From: Raja brachyura
Lineage: Eukaryota
DNA length: 64,000 bases
Direction: 5' to 3'
Assembly: GCA_963514005.1 (NCBI GenBank)
Contig: OY740804.1
Location: 4,774,001 to 4,838,000, forward strand
Shown here: piece by piece, positions 37,617-62,960 of the stretch
How the letters are laid out: each line of letters starts with the position of its first letter
Numbering within the stretch: position 1 is the first letter of the stretch
The notes under the pieces: model-generated
Told to the model about the DNA's origin: nothing
Seen by the model: the letters and a program-made list of their open reading frames with translations, nothing else
The model's database searches: none
Position numbers and translations under genes: made by a program

Positions 37617-38970
37617 AAGAGCATATAGAGAGTCATTGTGGGATGCAGTTGGGTTGCGAGAATCAAACTTGGAATGAAGCAAAACCCCTCAGTAACAGTG
37701 GTGCAGCGGCAGAGCTGTCGTCTCACAGCGCCAGAGACCTGGATTTGATCCTGACATCATGCGTTGTCTGTGTGGAGTTTGCATGTTCTCACTGCGACAG
37801 TCGGGTTCTCTCCAGGCAGAAGGCAGAAGGTTCTCCCCTGACATCAGTCTTAAGAAGGGTCTTGACCCGAAACGCCACCACTCCTTCTCTCCAGAGATGC
37901 TGCCTGTCCCGCTGAGTTACTCCAGCATTAGTGTCTACCAGCGGCATGATAATTGATTTCTCCAACTGCAAGGAACCGTTGCATTCCTTCTCTCTCCATC
38001 TCTCCCCCCCCCCCCCCCCCCCCCCCCGTCTTCTTGCTAATTTCACTGTTTTTTATCCCTTCCTTATCACCTCATCCCCAGCAACAATGGACCATTGTGG
38101 ACTCCACCTTTCTTGAGTTATCGATGCAGACTCTGCGTTGTTCTCAGGGCCAGATTTACGTATAATCTTGACATGCTTCAATTTAGGGCCTCGAGATCTA
38201 GGGGGGGCTCGCAGAGCCGGATTTACCACTAGCTGAAGCCTAGGGCCGTGAAATCTTGGGGGCTCCGGTTAAGGCAGGACACCTGCCGTTCAACTCCGGG
38301 CGGGCCGCCCTCTCTATCCCTCTCTCTCTGTCACTCTCCGTCTCTGCCCGCCATCCGTGTCTGGGCCGCTGGGTCTCCGCTCTCCGCTCGCTCCTCATCC
38401 GCCGGCATGGCAATCCTCCTTGCACATCCTCCCCCCCTGCACATGCGCACAACCACAGCCAGCACGTCATCGACCGCCCTGCGCATGCGTACTGCCACGG
38501 CGCTGGCCACTTTCTCTCAACCCAAAACGGCACCTGCCTGGCCCACTGAGTTACTCCAGACATTATATGTCTGTTTTTGAGAAATAGGAAGTTGTGACGT
38601 TGATAAGAAGATTTGAACACCAGTGTAAATATTTTGAAACCAAATCATTGATTCTACGGGTTAGGGTTGTTATGACTGTGCAGGGTGGGTTATCAGATCT
38701 GTGAGGTGTGGAGAACCATGGTCAAGTCCAAATCCACCCACATGTCGCAGTGCCAGGGTGAAGGGTGAGTGGGGCAGAGCAGGGCGGGGCACTGGCACCA
38801 GAGTTAAACTCATAGAGTCATACAGCACAGAAACAGGCCCTTCTTCCCAACTTGACCATGCTGACCAAACTGCTTACCTGCACTAGTTTAGTTTAGAGAT
38901 ACAGCGTGGAAACTGGCCCTTCGGCCCACCGAGTCCGCACCGAACAGCATTCCCCACGCATTAATACTAT

Positions 38971-40112
38971 TCACGGTAAAGCACACGGTATTGGGGGTTC
39001 AGTATTGATGTGGATAGAGAACTGGCTAGCAGACAGGAAGCAAAGGGTAGGAGTAAACAGGTCCTTTTCAGAATGGCAGGCAGTGACTAGTTTGGTACCG
39101 CAAGGCTCAGTGCTGGGACCCCAGCTATTTACAATATATATTAATGATTTGGACGAGGGAATTCAATGCAACATCTCCAAATTTGCAGATGACACCAAGC
39201 TGGGGGGTATAGTTAGGTGTGAGGAGGATGCTTGGAGGCTGCAGGGTGATTTGGATAGGCTGAGTGAATGGGCAGATGCATGGCAGATGCAGTATAATGT
39301 GGATAAATGTGAGGTTATCCACTTTGGTGGCAAAAACATGAGGGTAGACTATTATCTGAATGGTGGCAGATTAGGAAAAGGGGAGATGCAACGAGACCTG
39401 GGTGTCATGGTACACCAGCCATTGAAAGTAGGCATGCAGGTGCAGCAGGCAGTGAAGAAAGCAAATGGTATGTTAGCATTCATAGCAAAAGGATTTGAGT
39501 ATAGGGGCAGGGAGGTTCTACTGCAGTTGTACAGGGTCTTGGTGAGACCACACCTGGAGTATGGCGTACAGTTTTGGTCTCCAAATCTGAGGAAAGACAT
39601 TCTTGCCATGGAGGGGGTACAGAGAAGATTCACCAGACTGATTCCTGGGATGTCAGGACTTTCATATGAGGAAAGACTGGATAGACTCGGCTTGTACTCG
39701 CTGGAATTTAGAAGATTGAGGGGGGATCTTATAGAAACTTACAAAATTCTTAAGGGGTTGGACAAGCTAGATGCTGGAAGATTGTTCCCGATGTTGGGGG
39801 AGTCCAGAACAAGGGGTCACAGTCTAAGGATAAGGAGGAATTCCTTTAGGACCGAGATGAGGAAAACATTCTTTACACAGAGAGTGGTGAGTCTCTGGAA
39901 TTCTCTGCCACAGAAGGTAGTTGAGGCCAGTTCATTGGCTATATTTAAGAGGGCGTTAGATGTGGCACTTGTGGCTAAAGGGATCAGGGGGTATGGAGAG
40001 AAGGCAGGTACGGGATACTGAGTTGGATGATCAGCCATGATCACATTGAATGGCGGTGCAGGCTTGAAGGGCCGAATGGCCTACTCCTGCACCTATTTTT
40101 CTATGTTTCTAT
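38971..40112 (+). mobile_element. 5'-truncated CR1-clade (HER1-like) LINE with open ORF2 C-terminus
   Basis: VPQGSVLGP, KFADDTK, YRVLVRPHLEY, RRLRGDLIETYKI, FFTQRVVSLWNSLP; 3'UTR ending ...cctattttctatgtttctat. Nested in a SINE (38886-38970 + 40113-40329). Confidence 0.95.
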
Positions 40113-41028: not shown

Positions 41029-41699
41029 GAGGGACTAGCGTACATGGGACACCTTGATCGGCATTGGCAAGTTGTTTCCGTGCTGTATCACTCCATGATT
41101 TTATGAATCACATCCTAAAACTAAGCTTTACCTGGTCTCCGATGCTCAAGTCTGTGAATTGTCCTTCAAGGAGTTTATCTGGTGACGTGTGGACTTAACT
41201 GATCGCGTTTGGCAATAGACAATAGGTGCAGGAGTAGGCCATTCTGCCGTTCGAGCCAGCATTACCATTCAATATGATCATGGCTGATCATCCCCAATCA
41301 GCACCCCGTTCCTGCCTTCTCCCCATATCCCCTGTCTCCGCTATGTTTAAGAGCCCTATCTAGCCCTCTCTTGAAAGTATCCAGAGAACCGGCCTACACC
41401 ACCCACAGTCTCACAACTCTCTGTGAAAAGGTTCACACATTCCAGGAGTAGAATTTGGCCATTCGGCCCATCGCGTCTACTCCTCCATTCAAACATGGCT
41501 GATCGCTGCCTCTTAATCCCATACAAGTTCAGACACAGTGTGCCCGCATTTGGGGAGGGGCTTCAGGAGGTGGGCAAGGGAATGTTTGCGGTGGTGGACA
41601 GAGCGCCAGTCAAGCGGGCAAACGTCACCAGGATGAAGCAGAGCTTCGAGGAGATGCTCCAATCCAGGCAACAGGAGAGCATTGCAGCCCACTCCTGAT

Positions 41700-41882: not shown

Positions 41883-41979
41883 ATGGCAGTGGGACAGGGA
41901 GAATTCACCCACCAGAAACGGCCCAGATCCAGGGGAACAGTCGCTCTGTTGCTTCTTGTTGCTGTTGGTCACACATCAG
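41883..41979 (+). CDS. CD300/pIgR-like receptor exon 1, signal peptide: MAVGQGEFTHQKRPRSRGTVALLLLVAVGHTS(G)
   Basis: Strong Kozak, basic n-region plus hydrophobic h-region, phase-1 donor CAG|gtaaat matching the phase-1 V exons. Not in the ORF track. Confidence 0.8.
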
Positions 41980-44885: not shown

Positions 44886-44920
44886 AGTCTGAAGAAGGGT
44901 TTTGTCCCGAAACGTTGCCC
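44886..44920 (+). ncRNA. Minimal hammerhead ribozyme motif, second Penelope subfamily
   Basis: CUGAAGA-A-GGG UUUUGU CCC-GAAACGUU^GCC. A related copy lies on the - strand at ~50041-50074. Confidence 0.6.
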
Positions 44921-45106
44921 ATTTCCTCCGCTCCATAGATGCTGCTGCACCCGCTGAGTTTCTCCAGCACTTTTGTCTACCTTCGATTTTCCAGCATCTG
45001 CAGTTCCTTCTTAAACCCATAAGTACAAAGGACATGTTTTTTATTGTTAAACCTCAGCTTGTGTTGCTGCAGTGTGAGTGATCTTTCATCATTAATGTGC
45101 CAACAG

Positions 45107-45430
45107 GGTCAAGGGGAGAAACTGAACCCGAGGAGGTGAGGGGAGAGTTGGGGCAGTCGGTCACTGTGGAATGTCCGTATGATCGGAAATACAGTGACTA
45201 CAGGAAGCGATGGGTTAAAGGTGATGATTACAGGTCACCTGAGACCGTGGTTTCTACTGATCGCCCACAACAGGAGAGAACATCGATGACTGAAGACAAA
45301 GCACAACGGATAGTTTCAGTCACCATCGACAACCTGGTGAAGAGTGATGAAGGACGCTACTGGTGTGTGATAGTAAAGGGAAGAAATTCACCCGTTGAAT
45401 CGACCCCCATCTCATTGAAGGTTTCTGAAG
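45107..45430 (+). CDS. CD300/pIgR-like receptor exon 2, Ig V-type domain D1
   Basis: caacag acceptor, gtacgt donor, phase 1-1. Motifs GQSVTVECPY, KRW, SVTIDNL..SDEGRYWC, typical of the CD300/pIgR/TREM V-set. Confidence 0.9.
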
Positions 45431-45789
45431 GTACGTTGACGATCTCTCCTCACTCTCCCAGATGTGAAAATTCCAGCCTGGGAATTCCGGCCTCAGTCCT
45501 GACGGTGACTCTGTGCCACACAGCCGGGGGTAGGGGTGAGGGTGGTGGGGGGGGGGGGGGGGTGCCTACCTCATTTACTGGGGTCCCGGCCCATGGGGCC
45601 ACACCAACAGCCCACTGTCCCAGGAGCAGTATGGGGGGGATGTCAGACACCAGCCCCACGGAAGGTCCCAGCTACCGGCGACTCATTTACCCAAAGACAA
45701 TCGCTCCGGGACCAGAACCTCTGCCGCCCCCTCACTGGGGCAGGTGGGGGAAAACCGGCCCCTCACCCACCAAGGTGGGGAAAGGGGTC

Positions 45790-46092
45790 AAGGGGGGAGG
45801 GGAGGGGGCAGGTTAGTAGAAGATACTTAAAATTAGAGAATTCAACGTTCAAACCGTTGGGTTGTAAATTACTTAAGCGTAATACGAGGCGTGGTTCCTC
45901 CAATTTGCATGTGGCCTTATTCTGGCAATGGAGGAGGCCCTGGACAGAAAGGTCAGTGTGGGAATGGGAAGGGACGTTGACAGGGTTGGCAACCGGGAGA
46001 TAAAGAAGGGTCCCGACCCGAAAAGGACACCCATCCTTACTCCAGCTCTTTGTGTCTGGAGTAACCAGCACCTGCAGTTCCTTGCTACACAT
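45790..46092 (-). mobile_element. Penelope-like element 3' fragment (end of the GIY-YIG endonuclease ORF)
   Basis: Minus-strand translation ...SHSHTDLSVQGLLHCQNKATCKLEEPRLVLRLSNLQPNGLNVEFSNF, the typical C-terminus of vertebrate Penelope ORFs. Confidence 0.75.
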
Positions 46093-46208
46093 GATCTATG
46101 CAAAACCATGCACCTGTCTGAACAGCACAAATGACATGTTTTTTATTGTTAAACCTCAGCTTGTGTTGCTGCAGTGTGAGTGATCTTTCATCATTAATGT
46201 GCCCACAG

Positions 46209-46529
46209 GGTCAGGGGGAATAACTGGACCCAAGGAGGTGAGGGGAGAGTTGGGGCAGTCAGTCACTGTGGAATGTCCGTATCGTCAGGAATACAGAGAC
46301 AACAGGAAGCTATGGAGTAAAGGTTATTATTACCATTTTTCTGATACCGTGGTTTCCACTGATCAACTACGAGAAGGGAGAACATCGATGACTGATAACA
46401 AAACAGAACGGATACTTTCAGTAACCATCGACAAGCTGGAGAACAGTGATGAAGGAAGCTACTGGTGTGTCATACATGTTCGACAGAAGTTCAATGAAAG
46501 GACCTTCATCTCATTGAAGGTTTCTGAAG
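46209..46529 (+). CDS. CD300/pIgR-like receptor exon 3, Ig V-type domain D2
   Basis: cccacag acceptor, gtacgt donor, phase 1-1. ITGPKEVRGELGQSVTVECPY...SDEGSYWC; ~62% aa identity to D1 by hand alignment. Confidence 0.9.
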
Positions 46530-48107
46530 GTACGTTGACGATCTCTCCTCACTCTCCCAGATGTGAAAATTCCAGCCTGGGAATTCCCGGTCTCGGTCCT
46601 GACGGTGACTCGGTGCCACATCACCGGGGGTCCGTGGGGGGAGTTTGGGGGGAGGTGATGGGAGGTAGGGACGACTCGCTGCATGGGGCCACACCATGAG
46701 CCCACTGTCCCAGGAGCAGTGTGGGGGTGGGGGTGTGGGGGGGGGGCATCAATGGGGACCGGCGGTCCTGCTGCTGGCGGCTCAGTTCCCCAAAGACGAT
46801 CTTTCCTGGACCAGAACCTCTTGTGCCCCCTAACTGGGGCGGGGGGGGGGGGGGGTGAGGGGGAACTGCCCCCTCCCCCTCTCCACCTGCCCGTCACTGT
46901 CACACTCACCACACACACAACATCTTAAGAAGGGTCCCAACACTAAACATTGTCAGTTCATTCCTTCCACAGATGCTGCCTGACCTGCTGAGTTACTCCA
47001 GCACTTTGTGTTTTGCTCAAGATTCCAGCACCTGCAATTCCTTGTCTCTCACAAACTTTGGTGATTCATGAGCTCAGTTTATTTCTGTCATCTGTATTGA
47101 GGTGACAACAATAATAGATACTTTAAAGAGAGGGCTAGATAGGGCTCTTAACGATAGCGGAGTCAGGGGATATGGGGAGAAGGCAGGAACGGGGTACTGA
47201 TTAGGGATGATCAGCCATGATCACATTGAATGACAGTGCTGGCTCGAAGGGTCGAATGGCCTGCTCCTGCACCTATTGTTTATTGTCTCTTGTTATGAAG
47301 GCAACTGAACCAATCTATCACCAACTAGAGAGCGGTCCTGACCTGTCATCTACCTCATTGTCTATTGTCTTTGAGGTGCAGGGAAAAGCTTTTACCATGT
47401 TTCCAATGAGGGCCAAGTCATTGGGTATTTTTAAGGTGGAGATTGACAGGTTCTCCATTAGTATGGGTGTCGAGCGATATGGGGAGAAGGCAGGAGGTTG
47501 GGGTTGAGAGGGAGAGATACTGTAGAACAGCCATGATTGAATGGTGGAGTACACCAAAATGGGCCAAATGTCCTCATTCTGCCCCTATCACATGAACATG
47601 AGCGAAGAATCCTCATGAGATGAGTGATATAGACTTTACACTGAGCCACACAAACTATACAAGATGAGATACTCAACGGGTCGGACAGCATCTGTGGAGA
47701 GAGAACGAGAGTTAATGTTTCAGGTAGAAACCTCCAACCAAATTGCATTATTTCCAATTCAGTCCGCGTAATGAAAATAGGCCATGCATGCCCCTGCTCC
47801 CAAGTTCTTGTCCAACGTAGAAGACATGTGCCTAACTCTAGCAGCGGGCAGATAACACAGCCTGTGGGACTCTGAAGGCCATGAAAGAAGTCTCCGAATG
47901 CTTGCGACCATCCGGTGGCATCTTAATGGGTGAGCCTCCTGTCTAGATCAAGAGGCTTGGTCCATCTATGGTGGCCTCAGAAGGATCTTTGCCCAATTGT
48001 ATGGAGTGGGATTCAAACCAAGAATCTTCCACACTCCACTAAAGTGGCACAGAACGTCCTTTCAGACATTTGATGTTCAAAAACTTCATTTTCTTCATCT
48101 CCACAAG

Positions 48108-48264
48108 GGTCTCAAACAAGCCGCCCAGACATGGTCACCACCACCTCTACAACAATAAGCACAAGGGCTTCCACCACAACCACTCTGACCACCCTGCCTC
48201 AAGATGCACCAACCACCAAGAAAGCAAGTGCCACTGAGGCTTCTGGTTCAACACCTCCAAACAG
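48108..48264 (+). CDS. CD300/pIgR-like receptor exon 4, mucin-like Thr/Ser/Pro stalk
   Basis: Pyrimidine tract plus acaag acceptor, gttagt donor, phase 1->2. SQTSRPDMVTTTSTTISTRASTTTTLTTLPQDAPTTKKASATEASGSTPPN. Confidence 0.85.
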
Positions 48265-51614: not shown

Positions 51615-51661
51615 GCTCAAATGGCCAGATAGGTCAGGAAAATCCAGCAGACAGTTTCACG
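51615..51661 (+). CDS. CD300/pIgR-like receptor exon 6, short cytoplasmic exon: (G)SNGQIGQENPADSFT
   Basis: Very strong poly-T cag acceptor, gtaagg donor, phase 1->0, bridging the TM and terminal exons in frame. Confidence 0.8.
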
Positions 51662-53415: not shown

Positions 53416-53571
53416 GCAACCCCTGTCATTTATAGCACCGTGACAACCCGTTCCCCAGCTAGCACGGAGAATACTTACATGAACCTTCAGGATCTGAACA
53501 CACAAGGACAAGCCAAGAGGCAAGGTGCCGCAGAAGTTGTGTACGCAACAATTCTCACTGATAATAATTAA
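53416..53571 (+). CDS. CD300/pIgR-like receptor exon 7, signalling tail: ATPVIYSTV...NTYMNL...EVVYATILTDNN*
   Basis: ccaaag acceptor, phase 0. Two ITIM-consensus motifs (VIYSTV, VVYATI) and a TAA stop. Candidate poly(A) signals at 54461 and 54780. The N-gap in the preceding intron could hide another exon. Confidence 0.85.
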   Translation, partial: ATPVIYSTVTTRSPASTENTYMNLQDLNTQGQAKRQGAAEVVYATILTDNN

Positions 53572-55883
53572 TTCAAGCACCGGAGAACACCAAGAATGCA
53601 TTGGAAACGGACAGTCTGGTAAAGTTGTCTTTGCTTACCCACAAATACAGACATTTGCGTTCAGATCTCACCAAGAACAGTGCATGGTCATCAAGATAGC
53701 TGGAGATTTTGGGAATCTGATAAAGATAGGACATAGGAAAGTCCAACAGGCCCTTCGGCCCACAATATTCGTGCCGAAAATGAAAAATGCAAAAACACTC
53801 AGCAGGTCAGGCAGCACCTGTGGAGATAGAAACAGAGATAACATGATAGTTCGATTACCTTAAGGTGAGAGGGGAAAGATTTAGTAGGAAACCAAGGTTC
53901 AACTTTTTCACTCAGAGGGTGGCGGGTGTAAGGAACAAGCTGCTGTAGGAGGTAGCTGAGGCAGGTACTATAACAACATTTCAAAGACTTTTGGACAGGT
54001 ACATGGATAGGAAAGGTTTAGAGGGATATGGGCCAAATGCGGAAAGGTGAGACTATCATAGATGGGTTGGCAAGGACAAATTGGGCCAAATGGCCTGGTT
54101 CGTGCTGTATGTCTCTTAGAGTTTGTATTCAACGTAAGGAAATAAGTGCAGAAATAGGCCATTCAGCCCTTCAAGCCAATTCCGCCATTCAACACAATCA
54201 TGGCTGATCTGCCTCCAACTTCATCTCCTCTCAGTGCCAGTTCCTTAAAGCCCTTGACTCGTTGCCCCTTCAAACTCCTCTTTAAATACCCCTAATGATC
54301 CAGCCTCAATAACCTCCCAGTAGCAGGTTATTCCAGGGATTCATCACTCTGTTCCCCTTTCCACAAATGCCGCCGAACATGTTGAGATTTTCCACCATTT
54401 TTCTTTGGCCTTAATCAGAACAGCTGTGGAATTTGAACTGCTATTAATTTGTGATTTTAAAATAAATATGTATAGGTACTGTTGAACACAAAACTGCCGG
54501 CTTGGTGCTAAAACTCACGGGTTGACTTTCCACCATCCAGTTAACCAAGAAAAACAGTACTGTTACTAAGTCATAGAGCCACACAGTGCGGAAACAGGCC
54601 CACGTGCTTTACAGACAATTGCTTTAATTTCCCCGTATTTGTGAATGTTTACGTGAAGCGCAGTGGCTTGCAAATATGTGTATGAGGAACAGGAACCGCA
54701 AGTGAGAGATTGTGTAAATATCTACAAATGTTTTGTAAAGAAACATCTACAGATGACATGGGAGATGTTGTAAGCATACAATAAAGTACACTTGTCTTCT
54801 GAATACCTGGTGAGCCCAAGATTTTACCGACTTTGTCGAAGGTGGTTTTGCGGATGGATGTAGAACACAGAACAGCACAGGAACAGGCCCTTCAGCCCAC
54901 ATTGTCCATGCCAAACATGAGGCAAAGTTAATCTGATCTCATCTGCCTGCACATAGTCCACTATCCCTCCACCCCCTGCATATCTATGTGCCTATCTTAT
55001 ACTTGTACTGAAATGTATACAAAAATGAATTTCACTGTACCTCGTTACATGACAAATAAAGTACCATACCATACTATCTAAAAGCCTCAGTGGGCCGAAG
55101 GGCCTCTATCTCTAAAGTCTAAACAAAGAGTGCCACAGCGATAGATTTGCTGCCTCATGGCGCAGGAGACCCAGGTACGATCCTGACCACGGGTGCTGTC
55201 TGTGTGGAGTTTGTACGTTTTCCCTGTGATCGTGTGGGTTTTCTCCGGCTTCCTCCTGCAATCCAAAGACGTGCAGGTTAATTGGCTTCTGTAAATTGCC
55301 CCTAGTGTGTAGGATAGAACTAGTGTGTGGGCGATTGCTGGTCGATGTGGACTCAGCGGGCCGAAGGACCCGTTTCCACACTGTATTTCTAAACTAAACC
55401 AAAGCATTACATATTAGATGGGAAATGGGAAAAATCAATAGCTGAAGCAAAGTCAGTTGCATCAGAGGACCATCGGTCTACAATCGAGCTTCACAACGCA
55501 TGTGGAAAGAGAAGTTGTTTCAATTGCAATGTCCTTCAAGCAGCAACTCTACCGCTGCGCCACCGTGCTGCCCCGTGAAAAAGCCTCTGGTTATTAAACT
55601 GGAAGAGACGTGGGGAGTGGGGGGGGCACAAACTGTGCGAGTGAGTGGGGGGTGGGGGGGCAAAACACACATTTCCGCTGGCAATTTTCATTGCTCCTGT
55701 TCGTCTAACAGAAGGAGAACATTTTGTTGCATTTAATAGTTTTTCATGTTTTCATGCATGTATGGGAGCTAACTCTGCACACTGTCTCAGTGTACCAGTA
55801 CTATATATACACTTGCACTGTGTCTGAGATGCTTATCTAAGATATATCCAAGTGCTTATGTATAGTGATCCTTGAACTGATCA

Positions 55884-57495: not shown

Positions 57496-58824
57496 CATGC
57501 TCGAGTGGTTTCCATAACCTTTGACTCTCTTACCCTGAGTCAATCATGCTTACAATTTCACAATGTAAAGTTCTGCAATTGGAGCTCACGTTCCTGGTCA
57601 CAATATGCGTGACACTTTCCCAGCACCGCTGACATGCAGTAAATGATTGCATTCATTGCACAACCACCATTTTTACTCATACCAATAAAAAATTGCTCAA
57701 AACTGCAAACCAGAACTGTCCCATTGAAATTCAAGGCACAGTACTCTCCTGATTACTGAAAGGCCACAGCTGACACTGGCATTTCTAAGTTTGGTTTAGT
57801 TTAGAGGAACAGTGGCGGTGGAGGCCGATTCTCTGGATACTTTCAAGAGAGAGCGAGATAGGGCTCTTAACGATGGCGGAGTCAGGGGATATGGGGAGAA
57901 GGCAGGAACGGGGTACTGATTGGGGATGGTCAGCCATGATCACATTGAATGGCGGTGCTGGCTCGAAGGGCTGAATGGCCTACTCCTGTATCTATTATCT
58001 ATTGTCCATTGTCTATTGAACCAACCGCTTAGGCCCACCAAGTCTGCGGCGACCAGCGATCCCTGCACACTAACACCATCCTACACATCAGGGACAATTT
58101 ACAATTATACCAAGCCCATCAGTCTACAATCCTGCACGTCTTTGGAGTGTGGGAGGAAACTGGAGATCCTGAAGAAAACCCAACGCAGGTTACGGGGAGG
58201 ACGTACAAACTCCATACAGACAGGCACCTGTAGTTAGGATCGAACCCGGGTCTCTGGTGCTGTGAGGCAGCAACTCTACCGCTGCGCCCCTAGATATTAT
58301 GATACCTTATGATATTCCAAGTCTGTCTATATTGAGATACAAGAAGACCTTCATACCTGGTCTACTCCATCCATGGAGGTCAAGATCACATTGACTCCCA
58401 TCTTCCTAGTTGTAGGATTTGACCATCGAGGCAGCATGTCTCCGCAGCATCAGAGAGGTTATCATGGTAATGAATTAGAATCATAGACTCATAATTATAT
58501 AGCACGGAAATAGACCCTTCACCCATCCATGCTGACCAAAATGCCCCACCTGAGTAGTCCCATTTGGCAGCATTTGATCCATATCCCTCTAAACCATTCT
58601 TATCCATATACCTGTCCAATTGCCTTTTAAATGTTGTTTTACTTCGGAGTCACGTGAGTGACTACGTGAAGAAGACCCCGCCTGGCGCTGGAACGGCATT
58701 ACGTCGACGCTATCGGCAGCGAAAGAGCTGCAGAGCGCAGCTCCACACACAGCGGTAAGGAACCGGCCCGCAGGTAAGGAAGTTTTACAAAATTTAGGGC
58801 GAGGTTTCAGAACTCCGTAGCCTG

Positions 58825-60080
58825 GTGGGAAAACCAGGAGGAGTTAGTAAAAAAAATAAAAATAAAAATAAAAAAAAACAAAAACAAAATGGAGAAGGCC
58901 AAAAAAAACAGCGGGTAATACGTGCGTCCCGGGGTGTTGTAGAGTCGGGACAGCAGATTGCGGAGCCGGTTCCGATACCGGTGGCCGTTGAAACACCCGT
59001 TAGTGAGGCTTTGATTACTCCACAAACAGAAACTGTAGAGGAAATCCCAGTGCCTAAAAAATGTAACAGGAAAGCTGAAAGGCCTGGGGTTTCTGAGGAC
59101 TCTGATTCTGAAGGTCCAGAAAGGAAAGCCTTATGGCTCAGAATGGACCAAATGGAGAAAATTGCTCCAGACTATAATCAACCAAGGGTCTAAGAACCCA
59201 GAATATTCCCAGGCAGCCCCTGAGGGGGTCCATATCGTGAATATGGTGCCAATTCGATTTGGGAATTGAAACCCCAGTGCCTGGGTATGGACTGGAGGTA
59301 ATCTCCTTGAACAAGTTTCAGGAGAACCAGGGCTGTATGAGACAGACCCTGAAAGTGGTGATTGTGGTCCGGAGTACACACCACAATGGATCCAGGTGTG
59401 CCTGATGTGGCACAAGATTTTGCTATACCTGGAGGAAGCGGTGAGGCCATGGAAGATAACCTGGCGGCCAATATTAATTATATGGTCTCTCACCCGCTTC
59501 AAGATGCTGTTATGGTTGAGACAGCAGAAATGTATAAAACATCTATCAATTGTGCCTCTTTGAAGGTACCTACGGTGAATCCAGTTGTTTGGGCGCCAAT
59601 GTCTTCAATTATGCGGGCGCAATGAATTCGATTTCAAAGAGTCCTCAAGCTGTTTTCAGCTGGCATTACTGCACCTGGCAGATTAGTGGAAGGATGTGGA
59701 ATGACCAAAGTGCAGAAACATATGTTGGCCTTATTTTGCAACTCATTTGAGATTAATTGTATGAGTAAGATTGCCATTCGACCTCTATTACATTCAAGAT
59801 TTGCAGGATTGTGTAAACCAAGCAATGTTCAAACTCCTAGAGGGTTTTGTTCGGAGAGGATTTGTCTAAACAAATTAAAGAAATGGATGAAGAGGCAAAG
59901 ACTTTTGGTCGTATGAAACCCTTCACCTTTGGCCAGAAATGGACTGGCTATATAAAAAGGGATTTGACTTGGAGCTGGTACAAGCCGAGGCAGGAGTATG
60001 ATAAGGGACATTTTCCAGCCAACACAGCCAAATGTACGCCCATTTATTGGGAAAGGAAGTCATTTCGTCCAGGTGGAGAG
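58825..60080 (+). pseudogene. DIRS gag-like ORF1 remnant (fragmented)
   Basis: Consecutive ORF pieces (58825, 59362, 59686, 59847) including LKVPTVNPVVW and LFGEDLSKQIKE-like segments at the expected position. Confidence 0.6.
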
Positions 60081-60099
60081 GTACATAAACATTATCCTA

Positions 60100-61999
60100 T
60101 TAAGAGGAATGTTGGGATGAGCCACAGATTGGTGGTAGACTCCAAATGTTTTATGAGGAATGGGACAATATTACAGTTGATCGTGTTGTATTAGACACTG
60201 CTGAGAGGATTTACCATTGATTTTGTGGAAGGTATGGATCCATTGGGACGGAATGAGTCTAGTCATTATTTGATGTTCTCAGAGAGTGAGGAAATTCAAA
60301 TTGTTAAAGAGATTAAAAATTTGAGTAAAAAAGGAGTTATTTAGAATCTGGAGAGGATCCACAACAATTGTATCAAACATTTTTCCCAGAACAAAGAAAG
60401 ATGGGGGTTGTAGGATCATTTTAGATCTCACACTTTTGAATGAAACATTTGTCCAGTGTAAACATTTTAAAATGGACACATTTCACACTGCAATGCAGTT
60501 GGTATCAACAGGCTGTTATATGGCTACACTAGATTTGAAGGAGGCTTATTATTCCGTCCCAATTCATCATAGTTTTCGCAGGTATTTAAAGTTTAAATGG
60601 ATGGGACAGCTGTGGCAATACAAGCTTTGTCTAATGGATTAAGTTCAGCACCTAGATTGTTCACTTAATTGTTAAAGCCAGCACTTGCACTGCTAATGGC
60701 ACCAAAACACATCGTTAGGGTTTATTTAGATGACATTTTAATTGTCAATGCTAATCAGGAATCAGCTGGGAAATCAGTCTCAGCAACCATTAGCTTGTTT
60801 GAGAAGTTGGGTTCCTGATCCATCCAACAAAGTCTAAGTTACAGCCATCCCAAACCATTGAATATCTGGGGTTTGTGATTAACTCAGTCACCATGTTGGT
60901 AACTTTACCAATGGATAAGGAGTTAGATTTGACAAATGTGTGTCAAAACCTGATTAACAAACCTTATCCCTCCATCCGAGAGGTTGCCAAGGGTATTGGT
61001 AAATTGGTAGCAGCATTTCCAGCAATAGAATTTGGTCGTTTACATTACCAAAATCTTCAAAGGGCAAAAACTAAAGCGCTAATTCAGCGAGCAGGCCATT
61101 TTGATAGGCCAATGCAATTGCCTAAGGAAGCTGTATCGGAATTACATTGGTGGATTGAGAATGTTCCACAAGCTGCTAAGAACATTTTGGTTCATCAGCC
61201 AGTCGTGTTTTACAAACTGACGCAAGCTCGCTCGGATGGGGGGCTACGGACAATGAGACCAGCTGTGGGGGCAGATGGGCTGTCCAAGAGGATTTATTGC
61301 TCCAAACATATGGTATTAATTATTTGGAGCTACTGGGAGCATTTTATGGATTTAAAGCTTATTGCTCTTCATTAAAGGATTTGCATGTCCAAGTACAAAT
61401 AGATTACACCACAGCTGTGGCATATATCAATCACATGGTGGTGTCAGATCAAAATTAATGTGATCATCTGGTAACCAGATATGGCAGTGGTGTATTGCAA
61501 AAATACTTGGCTTTCAGCTATTTATCTCTCGGGGAGAGACAATGTTGTGGCAGACAAAGATCACGAATATTTAAAGACAATACAGAATGGATGTTAAATC
61601 CAAAAATTTTCAAAAATATTGTCAGTCGGTATGGAGTACCGGACATTGATCTGTTTGCATCTAGATTGAATCACCAATTGCCGAAATACGTGTCTTGGGA
61701 ACACGATCCAGGGGCAGTAGCGGTGGATGCTTACTCGCTACACTGGGGGAATATGTTCTTTTATGCTTTTCCCCCATTCTGTCTCATTGGGCAATGTCTC
61801 AAGAAAATAGCGCAAGACGCTGCCAAAGGCATTTTGGTGGTGCCAGTTTGGCCCACACAGTCATGGTTCCCATTGATGCTTAAAATGATTATTGAACCAT
61901 GTATGGTAATTCCCAGTGCGACAATCTGTTCACACAACCAGTAACAAAAGAAATTCATCCATTGCATGATCATATGAATTTGTTAATCTGCAGGTTCTG
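60100..61999 (+). pseudogene. DIRS reverse transcriptase / RNase H / DNA adenine-methyltransferase-like ORF remnant
   Basis: KKDGGCRIILDL, LDLKEAYYSVPI, VYLDD (~60720-34), TDASSLGWG, INYLELL, DLFASRLN...YAFPPF...VPVWPTQSWF. Multiple frameshifts and stops (e.g. TAA 60666-68). Confidence 0.9.
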
Positions 62000-62029
62000 A
62001 CCAGACCATTGCAACAGTTTGAACTGTCG

Positions 62030-62960
62030 GACAGGACCATGGATGTTATAGATACAGTTTGGAGGACTAGCACTAGAAAACAATATATGTGCCATATTAG
62101 AAATGGGAAGCCTTTTGTACACAGGCAAAGATATCTTATAATTCTGCAAACATTTCAAATGTATTGGAGTTCCTTGCTGGGTTACACTTTGATGAGCATT
62201 TGAGTTATAGTGCCATTAATTGTGCTCGGAGTGCATTGTCATCCTATTTAGGACAAATTTCGGATCGGGATTCAGTTGGGTCTCACCCATTAATATCTCG
62301 ATTCATGAAGGGTATTTTAATATAAATCCTCCCAAGCCCAGATATACAGGAATTTGGGATGTTAGCATTGTTCTTACTTTACTTAAACAATGGACTCCAA
62401 TTAATTCAATATCTTTGCAGAACTTAACATTGAAGGTGGTTATGTTAATGGCATTGGTATCAGCTCAAAGAGTACAGACTTTGCAATTGTTAAGGTTGGA
62501 TTGCATGCATGTGACTTCAGATAACATTGTGTTTATGTTTATGACCGGTGAAACAAAGCAGACCAGGGAGAACTGGAATGAAGGTAATGTTTAAAGCATA
62601 TCCTATTGATGAAACATTGTGTGTAGTTAAGCATTTAACTCAATACATGGAGGTAACCAAAAATCTCAGAGGTTCTGAGAAAGCGTTATTGATAACACAC
62701 AAAAAACCACATACAAAAGTTTCAGTTCAAACCATTTCTAGATGGTTAAAACAGGTTTTGGGTCTAGCAGGAATAGACACTGATGTGTTAAATCTCACTA
62801 CACTAGGGCAGCTACGTCCGCGGCGAAGGTACAGGACGTACCACTCGATCAAATTTTAGAGGCCGCAGGGTGGTCTAGAGAAGAAACTTTTTCAAAGTCC
62901 TACAATAAACCTGTTGTCACGGTGCCAGGATTTGGACACGCAGGACTGGGTTCTCTTTAA
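62030..62960 (+). pseudogene. DIRS tyrosine recombinase ORF remnant
   Basis: WRTSTRKQY, LMALVSAQRVQTL (catalytic R), SHYTRAATS (HxxR), ILEAAGWSREETFSKSYNKP (W and catalytic Y). Frameshifted. Confidence 0.88.

Follow-up and report, generated by a model that had tools for sequence, protein, structure and literature searches.

Two tandem V exons in a window of 64,000 nt from the skate Raja brachyura (contig OY740804.1, positions 4,774,001 to 4,838,000; positions below are those of the window unless a contig is named) differ far more from each other than do the intron stretches that border them. The question raised by this locus is what such a pattern records. An initial annotation had read it as diversifying selection on a ligand-binding face, or else as gene conversion with paralogues elsewhere.

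The duplicated V exons and their receptor gene

Our recount of the intron flanks gave the same numbers as first put forward, 75 of 76 nt upstream (45031-45106 vs 46133-46208) and 58 of 58 nt downstream (45431-45488 vs 46530-46587), and realignment of the domains D1 and D2 yielded 67 identical residues out of 107, close to the ~67 of 108 counted by hand. The loop differences quoted for the two domains are likewise present in the sequence, and at the DNA level the exons differ at 61 of 318 nt. Both have AG/GT splice borders in phase 1 and comprise 107 (D1) and 106 (D2) whole codons. On the 3' side the identity between the copies reaches back 23 nt into the exon. A piece farther upstream is 88% alike between the copies, and beyond the quoted flanks homology continues at ~80% (594 of 743 positions, gaps counted, out to ~45750/46850), so that the near-identical flanks are a short island within an older duplicate. 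A SINE-like insertion of ~140 nt (44888-45020) lies directly upstream of the conserved D1 flank and is found, among 8 copies, before D1 of the window gene only.

Leader, D1, D2, stalk, membrane and two tail exons add up to seven exons, all with canonical splice sites, that together read as a single open frame of 405 aa (Table 1). Judged from its sequence, the window gene is an intact CD300/pIgR-like receptor with two ITIM-pattern motifs and tandem V domains, and the ITIM tail together with the names of its relatives suggests that the receptor is likely inhibitory. The name pIgR-like stems from automatic annotation, and the ITIM tail speaks rather for a receptor that signals. Pfam V-set was above cut-off for both domains, the V-set hallmarks C22, W35 and C86 are present, and the predicted model of D2 (pLDDT 93) shows strands A'BCC'DEFG. 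The closest solved sequences are pIgR and CD300lf; in the fold search with the D2 model CD300lf ranked best, the top three hits having TM-scores of 0.90-0.94. Neither cysteine of the second, C-C' disulfide, a hallmark of V domains of the CD300/pIgR/TREM type, occurs in any of the 7 subfamily exons, whereas all 21 exons aligned from the neighbouring cluster have both. Because this disulfide is missing we class the window exons as CD300/pIgR-like rather than CD300. Its loss in the subfamily is derived or recurrent, since several ray and shark relatives retain the cysteines.

Table 1. Features of the receptor gene and of its duplicated V exons in the window
Feature	Position	Strand	Basis or remark
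Leader exon (ATG, signal peptide), phase 1	41883..41979	+	Agrees with the N-terminal ends of skate homologues P0003-P0007
Proximal upstream intron flank of D1, homogenised	45031..45106	+	75/76 to D2 flank
V-set exon D1, 107 aa, without C-C' cysteines	45107..45430	+	Pfam V-set E 1.9e-14
81-nt tract identical to 46507-46587, likely conversion tract	45408..45488	+	Last 23 nt of exon + 58 nt of intron
Distal downstream intron, diverged homologue of 46588-46850 containing indels and G runs	45489..45750	+	
Proximal upstream intron flank of D2	46133..46208	+	Flank alignment
V-set exon D2, 106 aa, fold prediction nearest to CD300lf	46209..46529	+	Pfam and model
Proximal downstream intron flank of D2	46530..46587	+	Flank alignment
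Ser/Thr-rich stalk exon	48108..48264	+	Gene model
Transmembrane exon, hydrophobic run without charged residue	48870..48985	+	Gene model
First cytoplasmic exon	51615..51661	+	Gene model
Last coding exon, two ITIM-pattern motifs (VIYSTV, VVYATI) and stop	53416..53571	+	Gene model

Several further patterns were noticed around the gene. An open stretch directly 5' of the leader (41540-41695) is conserved before every subfamily leader; the Rhinoraja model P0002 wrongly ends in it, probably through an annotation fusion. The Amblyraja model P0005 ends in a sequence (AFRSHQEQCMVI) for which the window gene has a matching frame in its 3' UTR region (53498-53863), and the model probably leaves out the ITIM exon or represents an isoform. 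Farther away, 38897-40021 holds a LINE reverse-transcriptase frame of 374 aa (Pfam RVT_1), and 58798-62594 holds broken frames that resemble a DIRS-type retroelement, with only a weak Dam-like Pfam match below cut-off.

Subfamily copies and the likeness of the flanks

A DNA search of the genome yielded 8 subfamily matches with 7 whole V exons: two in the window gene, two in gene B, one each in genes C, D and F (the last broken), and one on contig C47. Genes B, C, D and F lie, like the window gene, on contig C24, ~410-455 kb from the window; the partial copy F was excluded from every codon and flank count. Subfamily ectodomains are 63-80% identical (among the 18 of 21 pairs listed), and the V exons of C and D show zero synonymous differences. 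The window gene and gene D carry an ITIM tail, and B, C, F and the C47 copy a short tail with an arginine-bearing membrane exon. As similar ectodomains are joined to either type of tail, the subfamily probably consists of paired receptors, in which the short-tailed genes, whose membrane arginine is a residue with a role in activating receptors of the paired type, would be the activating partners.

Regarding the remaining copies, the V exon of F (L008, C24:5253143-5253670) stops after ~30 codons and is followed by downstream-intron sequence; a stalk and an arginine-type membrane exon are present, a leader match is absent nearby, and F is likely a pseudogene. The stalk exon of gene D (L046, C24:5275154-5275385) carries a short in-frame SINE-like insert with a duplicated target site. 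Downstream of gene B the minus strand carries one more leader exon, intact and accompanied by its 5' intron (L040, C24:5220151-5220367), after which no subfamily V exon was found. Of 87 candidates in a protein search of the genome, 61 were matches, including 53 distant V exons on C24 with 23-39% identity. At least 53 more CD300/pIgR-like V exons thus occupy ~1.2 Mb adjoining the window (C24:4898072-6097938, loci L016-L038 and others). They keep the C-C' disulfide, are most variable at the N-terminus, in the C-C' region and in the FG loop, and include near-identical blocks (L024/L025, L037/L038).

Among the six C24 copies the proximal flanks differ at 0.021-0.023 per site and the distal intron segments at 0.088-0.185, with 7 of 134 segregating sites in the former vs 64 of 241 in the latter; the long introns between the C24 genes stand at ~0.04 per site. 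A run test over 21 pairs, in which the D1/D2 run 45409-45486 was the best of all (global p=0.005), points to conversion of this tract; with the introns taken alone the best run had a global p of 0.15. A PHI-like test detected no clustering (p=0.51). Among 35 informative sites 51% of the pairs are incompatible with a single tree, and trees of the individual regions differ from each other with low support. Taken together, short-tract gene conversion is most likely the source of the flank identity, as far as the alignments of the copies can tell.

The flanks could also be alike through purifying selection on splice signals, intronic enhancers or RNA pairing, with the selection on the exon being real, and although we regard this as unlikely it deserves some weight. 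The conserved stretches adjoin both splice sites in six copies, and pairing between upstream and downstream flank is predicted at -28.7 kcal/mol vs -21.5 in mononucleotide shuffles, a marginal difference (p about 0.045). Inside the proximal flanks no family-wide difference was found among the 40 of 307 rows listed for four runs, which fits constraint but also a shared ancestral consensus. Against constraint, however, stands the C47 copy, which has an open V exon, a leader and a membrane exon and whose flanks differ from those of the C24 copies by 0.086-0.111, at the level of the C47 background (0.083-0.087); the flanks are therefore not visibly constrained there. Nor is likeness of the flanks general in the neighbouring cluster, where 23 of 53 distant V loci have an exon that is less diverged than its flanks. 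A coding constraint through read-through into the downstream flank was rejected as well, since that frame is free to change and 4 of 4 changes among the C24 copies alter the residue. Finally, the identity enters the exon by 23 nt with silent positions included.

Homogenisation may also be seen in relatives. In Rhinoraja all 8 domains form one clade (99/94) and are 87% alike on average, a pattern that fits either concerted evolution or a recent burst. The Narcine protein P0009 contains V-domain pairs that are repeated exactly. Domain homogenisation or recent expansion thus appears to recur in the subfamily (P0009, P0001, P0002).

Selection on codons and the position of variable sites

Codon tests, which leave the flanks aside, support the proposed positive selection on a ligand-binding face, and pairwise as well as site-model estimates of dN/dS, run on paralogues, were above 1. 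For the D1/D2 pair counting gave a dN of 0.25 and a dS of 0.14 (bootstrap p 0.03, Fisher p 0.14) and likelihood a dN/dS of 2.9 (p=0.011); D2 of the window gene and D2 of gene B gave 1.19, which is not significant. Over the 7 paralogous V exons the whole-exon dN/dS was 2.03 under M0 (greater than 1, p=0.0015), and it was 2.17-2.23 with equal codon frequencies, with a star tree or without the FG loop. M2a was preferred over M1a with a 2dL of 92 and placed 19% of codons near a dN/dS of 13. As conversion can mimic such a site-model signal, the fast class was given its own synonymous rate; the 2dL was then 9.2 (p=0.002), which means that synonymous-rate variation strips ~90% of the signal (92 to 9). 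With multi-hit codons, without the FG loop, or both, the same test gave a 2dL of 10.9-14.4, and the selection model was better in all four synonymous-rate settings (p 0.0002-0.002).

These results bear on the possibility that there was no positive selection and that an old, neutral or weakly constrained exon interior looks fast because conversion wiped out the differences in flanks and framework. A null model with a ten-fold faster neutral class is only 4.6 log units behind the selection model, and the synonymous rate of the face codons is 2.7 times that of the rest when the FG loop is counted. Once the FG loop is left out, however, face codons no longer differ from the rest in synonymous rate and give a dN/dS of 5.6, and in neutral simulations on mosaics of random trees 0 of 73 reached a dN/dS of 2.03, the maximum being 1.72. 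With the selection model ahead in every setting, we consider the absence of selection quite improbable, and positive selection on the V exons appears well supported by the codon comparisons.

All 15 codons with NEB>0.9, a rough measure when obtained from 7 sequences, fall within the 35 of 107 codons assigned to the front face and loops, a partition drawn after the site list was known and with inward or outward orientation taken from strand alternation. Six of the 15 are located on the predicted strands C, C', F and G, so the initial description of the framework as largely identical holds in part only. Core codons have a dN/dS of 0.35 and surface codons outside the face one of 3.0, and the fast codons include both positions equivalent to the C-C' cysteines, 36 and 43. 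The variable sites line the predicted front (GFCC') face, strand residues included. For CD300lf, lipid and norovirus are described in the accessible text of PMC6166816 as binding a cleft between the CC' and CDR3 (FG) loops which is floored by the Cys36-Cys44 disulfide. By analogy a pathogen arms race behind the divergence of D1 and D2 is plausible, and the selective agent would be a ligand that itself varies, for instance a pathogen surface. The ~15 codons and the lost disulfide mark a likely ligand-binding surface of the receptor.

Age of the duplication and proposed mechanism

Between D1 and D2, 4 of 32 fourfold sites, 30 of 234 distal intron sites and 1 of 134 proximal flank sites differ. 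The flanks depart from the distal intron (Fisher p=9e-6; the distal segments were chosen by hand for alignability, and part of them is SINE-derived or GC-rich) and from the fourfold sites (p=0.005), but from the long-intron background of ~0.04 between the C24 genes only at p=0.03. CpG decay was rejected as the source of the distal divergence, as it accounts for 5 of the 30 differences and p is still 8e-5 without them. In a tree of 25 domains D1 is closest to domain 1 of the Amblyraja protein P0005 (78%) and D2 to its domain 2 (77%), D1 and D2 being 64% identical to each other; support for the two orthologies is moderate and below the starred level (84/89 and 91/89). Because distal intron and fourfold sites have diverged and each domain is nearest to the Amblyraja domain at the same position, the duplication must predate what the flanks by themselves would suggest.

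The identity of the flanks, in which the initial annotation saw a signature of selection, is thus no guide to the age of the duplication, silent exon sites and distal intron being ~15 times more diverged than the 134 flank bases; flanks more alike than the exon are not readable as a clock. The annotation had further set selection and flank homogenisation against each other, to be told apart by an exon dS far above flank divergence combined with a dN/dS of 1 or less. The former was found, the latter was not, and both processes appear to hold. A recent duplication, dated by flanks 0.7% apart and followed by extremely fast selected change of the exon, would accommodate the flank identity and a dN/dS above 1, but it is very improbable in view of the silent and distal intron differences, the closer Amblyraja domains and the presence of nearly the same D1 and D2 in contigs of another organism. 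These contigs, from the public run X2, cover 285 nt of D1 with 3 differences and 189 nt over the D2 end and flank with 3 differences, and those of run X1, which may be the assembled sample, agree at every position over 282 nt in D1 and 174 nt in D2. Short reads are easily misplaced among multi-copy flanks, but that assembly or polishing collapsed similar flanks is hardly credible: every copy has flank differences of its own, the X2 contig spans the variable end of D2 together with 35 nt of flank, and with D1 and D2 reproduced in both runs an assembly error is unlikely.

With fair confidence we favour positive selection on the predicted front face of the V exons, combined with conversion of their flanks long after an old duplication, in a likely inhibitory CD300/pIgR-like receptor. 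An old tandem duplication gave rise to D1 and D2, and long afterwards short conversion tracts would have homogenised 60-80 intron bases on each side. Conversion would begin where the copies still align without gaps, that is in the flanks and exon ends, and farther out it would be halted by G runs, indels and SINE insertions. Selection would purge tracts that overwrite the binding face, and for this reason silent sites in the exon interior would keep their old divergence. Occasional unequal crossing-over within the shared unit may have occurred in addition: the single-V genes C and D have an upstream intron of D1 type and a downstream intron of D2 type, and these joins together with the 1-4 V domains of skate relatives suggest such exchange, though a single-V ancestral state would look alike. 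A more far-reaching idea, which we hold to be speculative and rather doubtful, is that the flanks serve as standing homology arms for germline cassette shuffling, by which V exons are added, dropped or swapped across positions and between inhibitory and activating genes, and that loss of the C-C' disulfide turned the CD300 lipid cleft into an antibody-like hypervariable surface. The hybrid introns of C and D, the V number of 1-4 in skate genes and the 51% of incompatible site pairs are hints in this direction.

Comparison with known systems

The subfamily offers a compact, testable case in which an innate receptor family of cartilaginous fish combines diversifying selection with homogenised flanks. 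By its leader, V exon, stalk and tail sequences the window gene belongs to an elasmobranch CMRF35-like/pIgR-like subfamily. All 7 protein relatives from the database search are skate proteins named pIgR-like or CMRF35-like, and more distant ones come from rays and sharks. The skate and ray RefSeq models (such as Amblyraja XP_032898105.1 and Leucoraja XP_055510917.1) have the same leader, 1-4 V exons and stalk and either the same two-ITIM tail or a short tail with membrane arginine, and relatives also occur in Rhinoraja, Narcine, Hemitrygon, Mobula, Pristis and sharks. Names of these models are automatic and not functional evidence, and their V-domain number ranges over 1-5. Window D2 is 69-77% identical to skate relatives and D1 50-62% to ray and shark relatives; the C-C' cysteines, missing from the skate copies, are retained in several rays and in the horn shark. 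Our literature search, with subscription journals largely outside its coverage, did not find a study of the molecular evolution of this subfamily. Skate MDIRs are described in the accessible part of PMC3031540 as a multigene family of activating and inhibitory receptors similar to CD300, TREM, FCAR and pIgR, and by this description MDIR is likely the literature name for the window subfamily or for a neighbouring family; no entries named MDIR appeared in the protein-relative searches.

Mammalian CD300lf and CD300a have an ITIM tail like the window gene. The CC'-CDR3 cleft of CD300lf, the best fold match, is, as far as the accessible text of PMC6166816 describes it, the region that varies in the skate exons; in contrast to CD300lf, the window gene has two V domains, only ~31% identity and no Cys36-Cys44 disulfide. 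Gene conversion has been described in primates between CD300A and CD300C (PMC12447643, in its accessible part). The geometry of D1 and D2, a diverged exon with alike flanks, corresponds to that of red/green opsin exon 5 in the Teshima-Innan model: there, in the accessible text of PMC3924837, a divergence peak forms under conversion, with an orthologue-like exon and introns kept alike as selection limits conversion. Grouping of the exons with their orthologues, which characterises such a peak, was also found here with moderate support (84/89, 91/89). In the skate, unlike in the opsins, the copies comprise two tandem domains of a single gene, separated by 1.1 kb, together with paralogues, only 60-80 nt per side are homogenised, and the exon has a dN/dS above 1, which points to ongoing change. 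In the Xenopus and mammalian CEACAM paired receptors, according to the accessible text of PMC5112662, conversion is accompanied by fast nonsynonymous change on the CC'C''FG face. The geometry described there is inverse, with conversion confined to the exon and diverging introns, whereas in the skate it is the exon interior that differs, between flanks that are alike. The pattern itself is thus already in print, in the opsins and, inverted, in the CEACAMs, and to a specialist it is sound rather than surprising.
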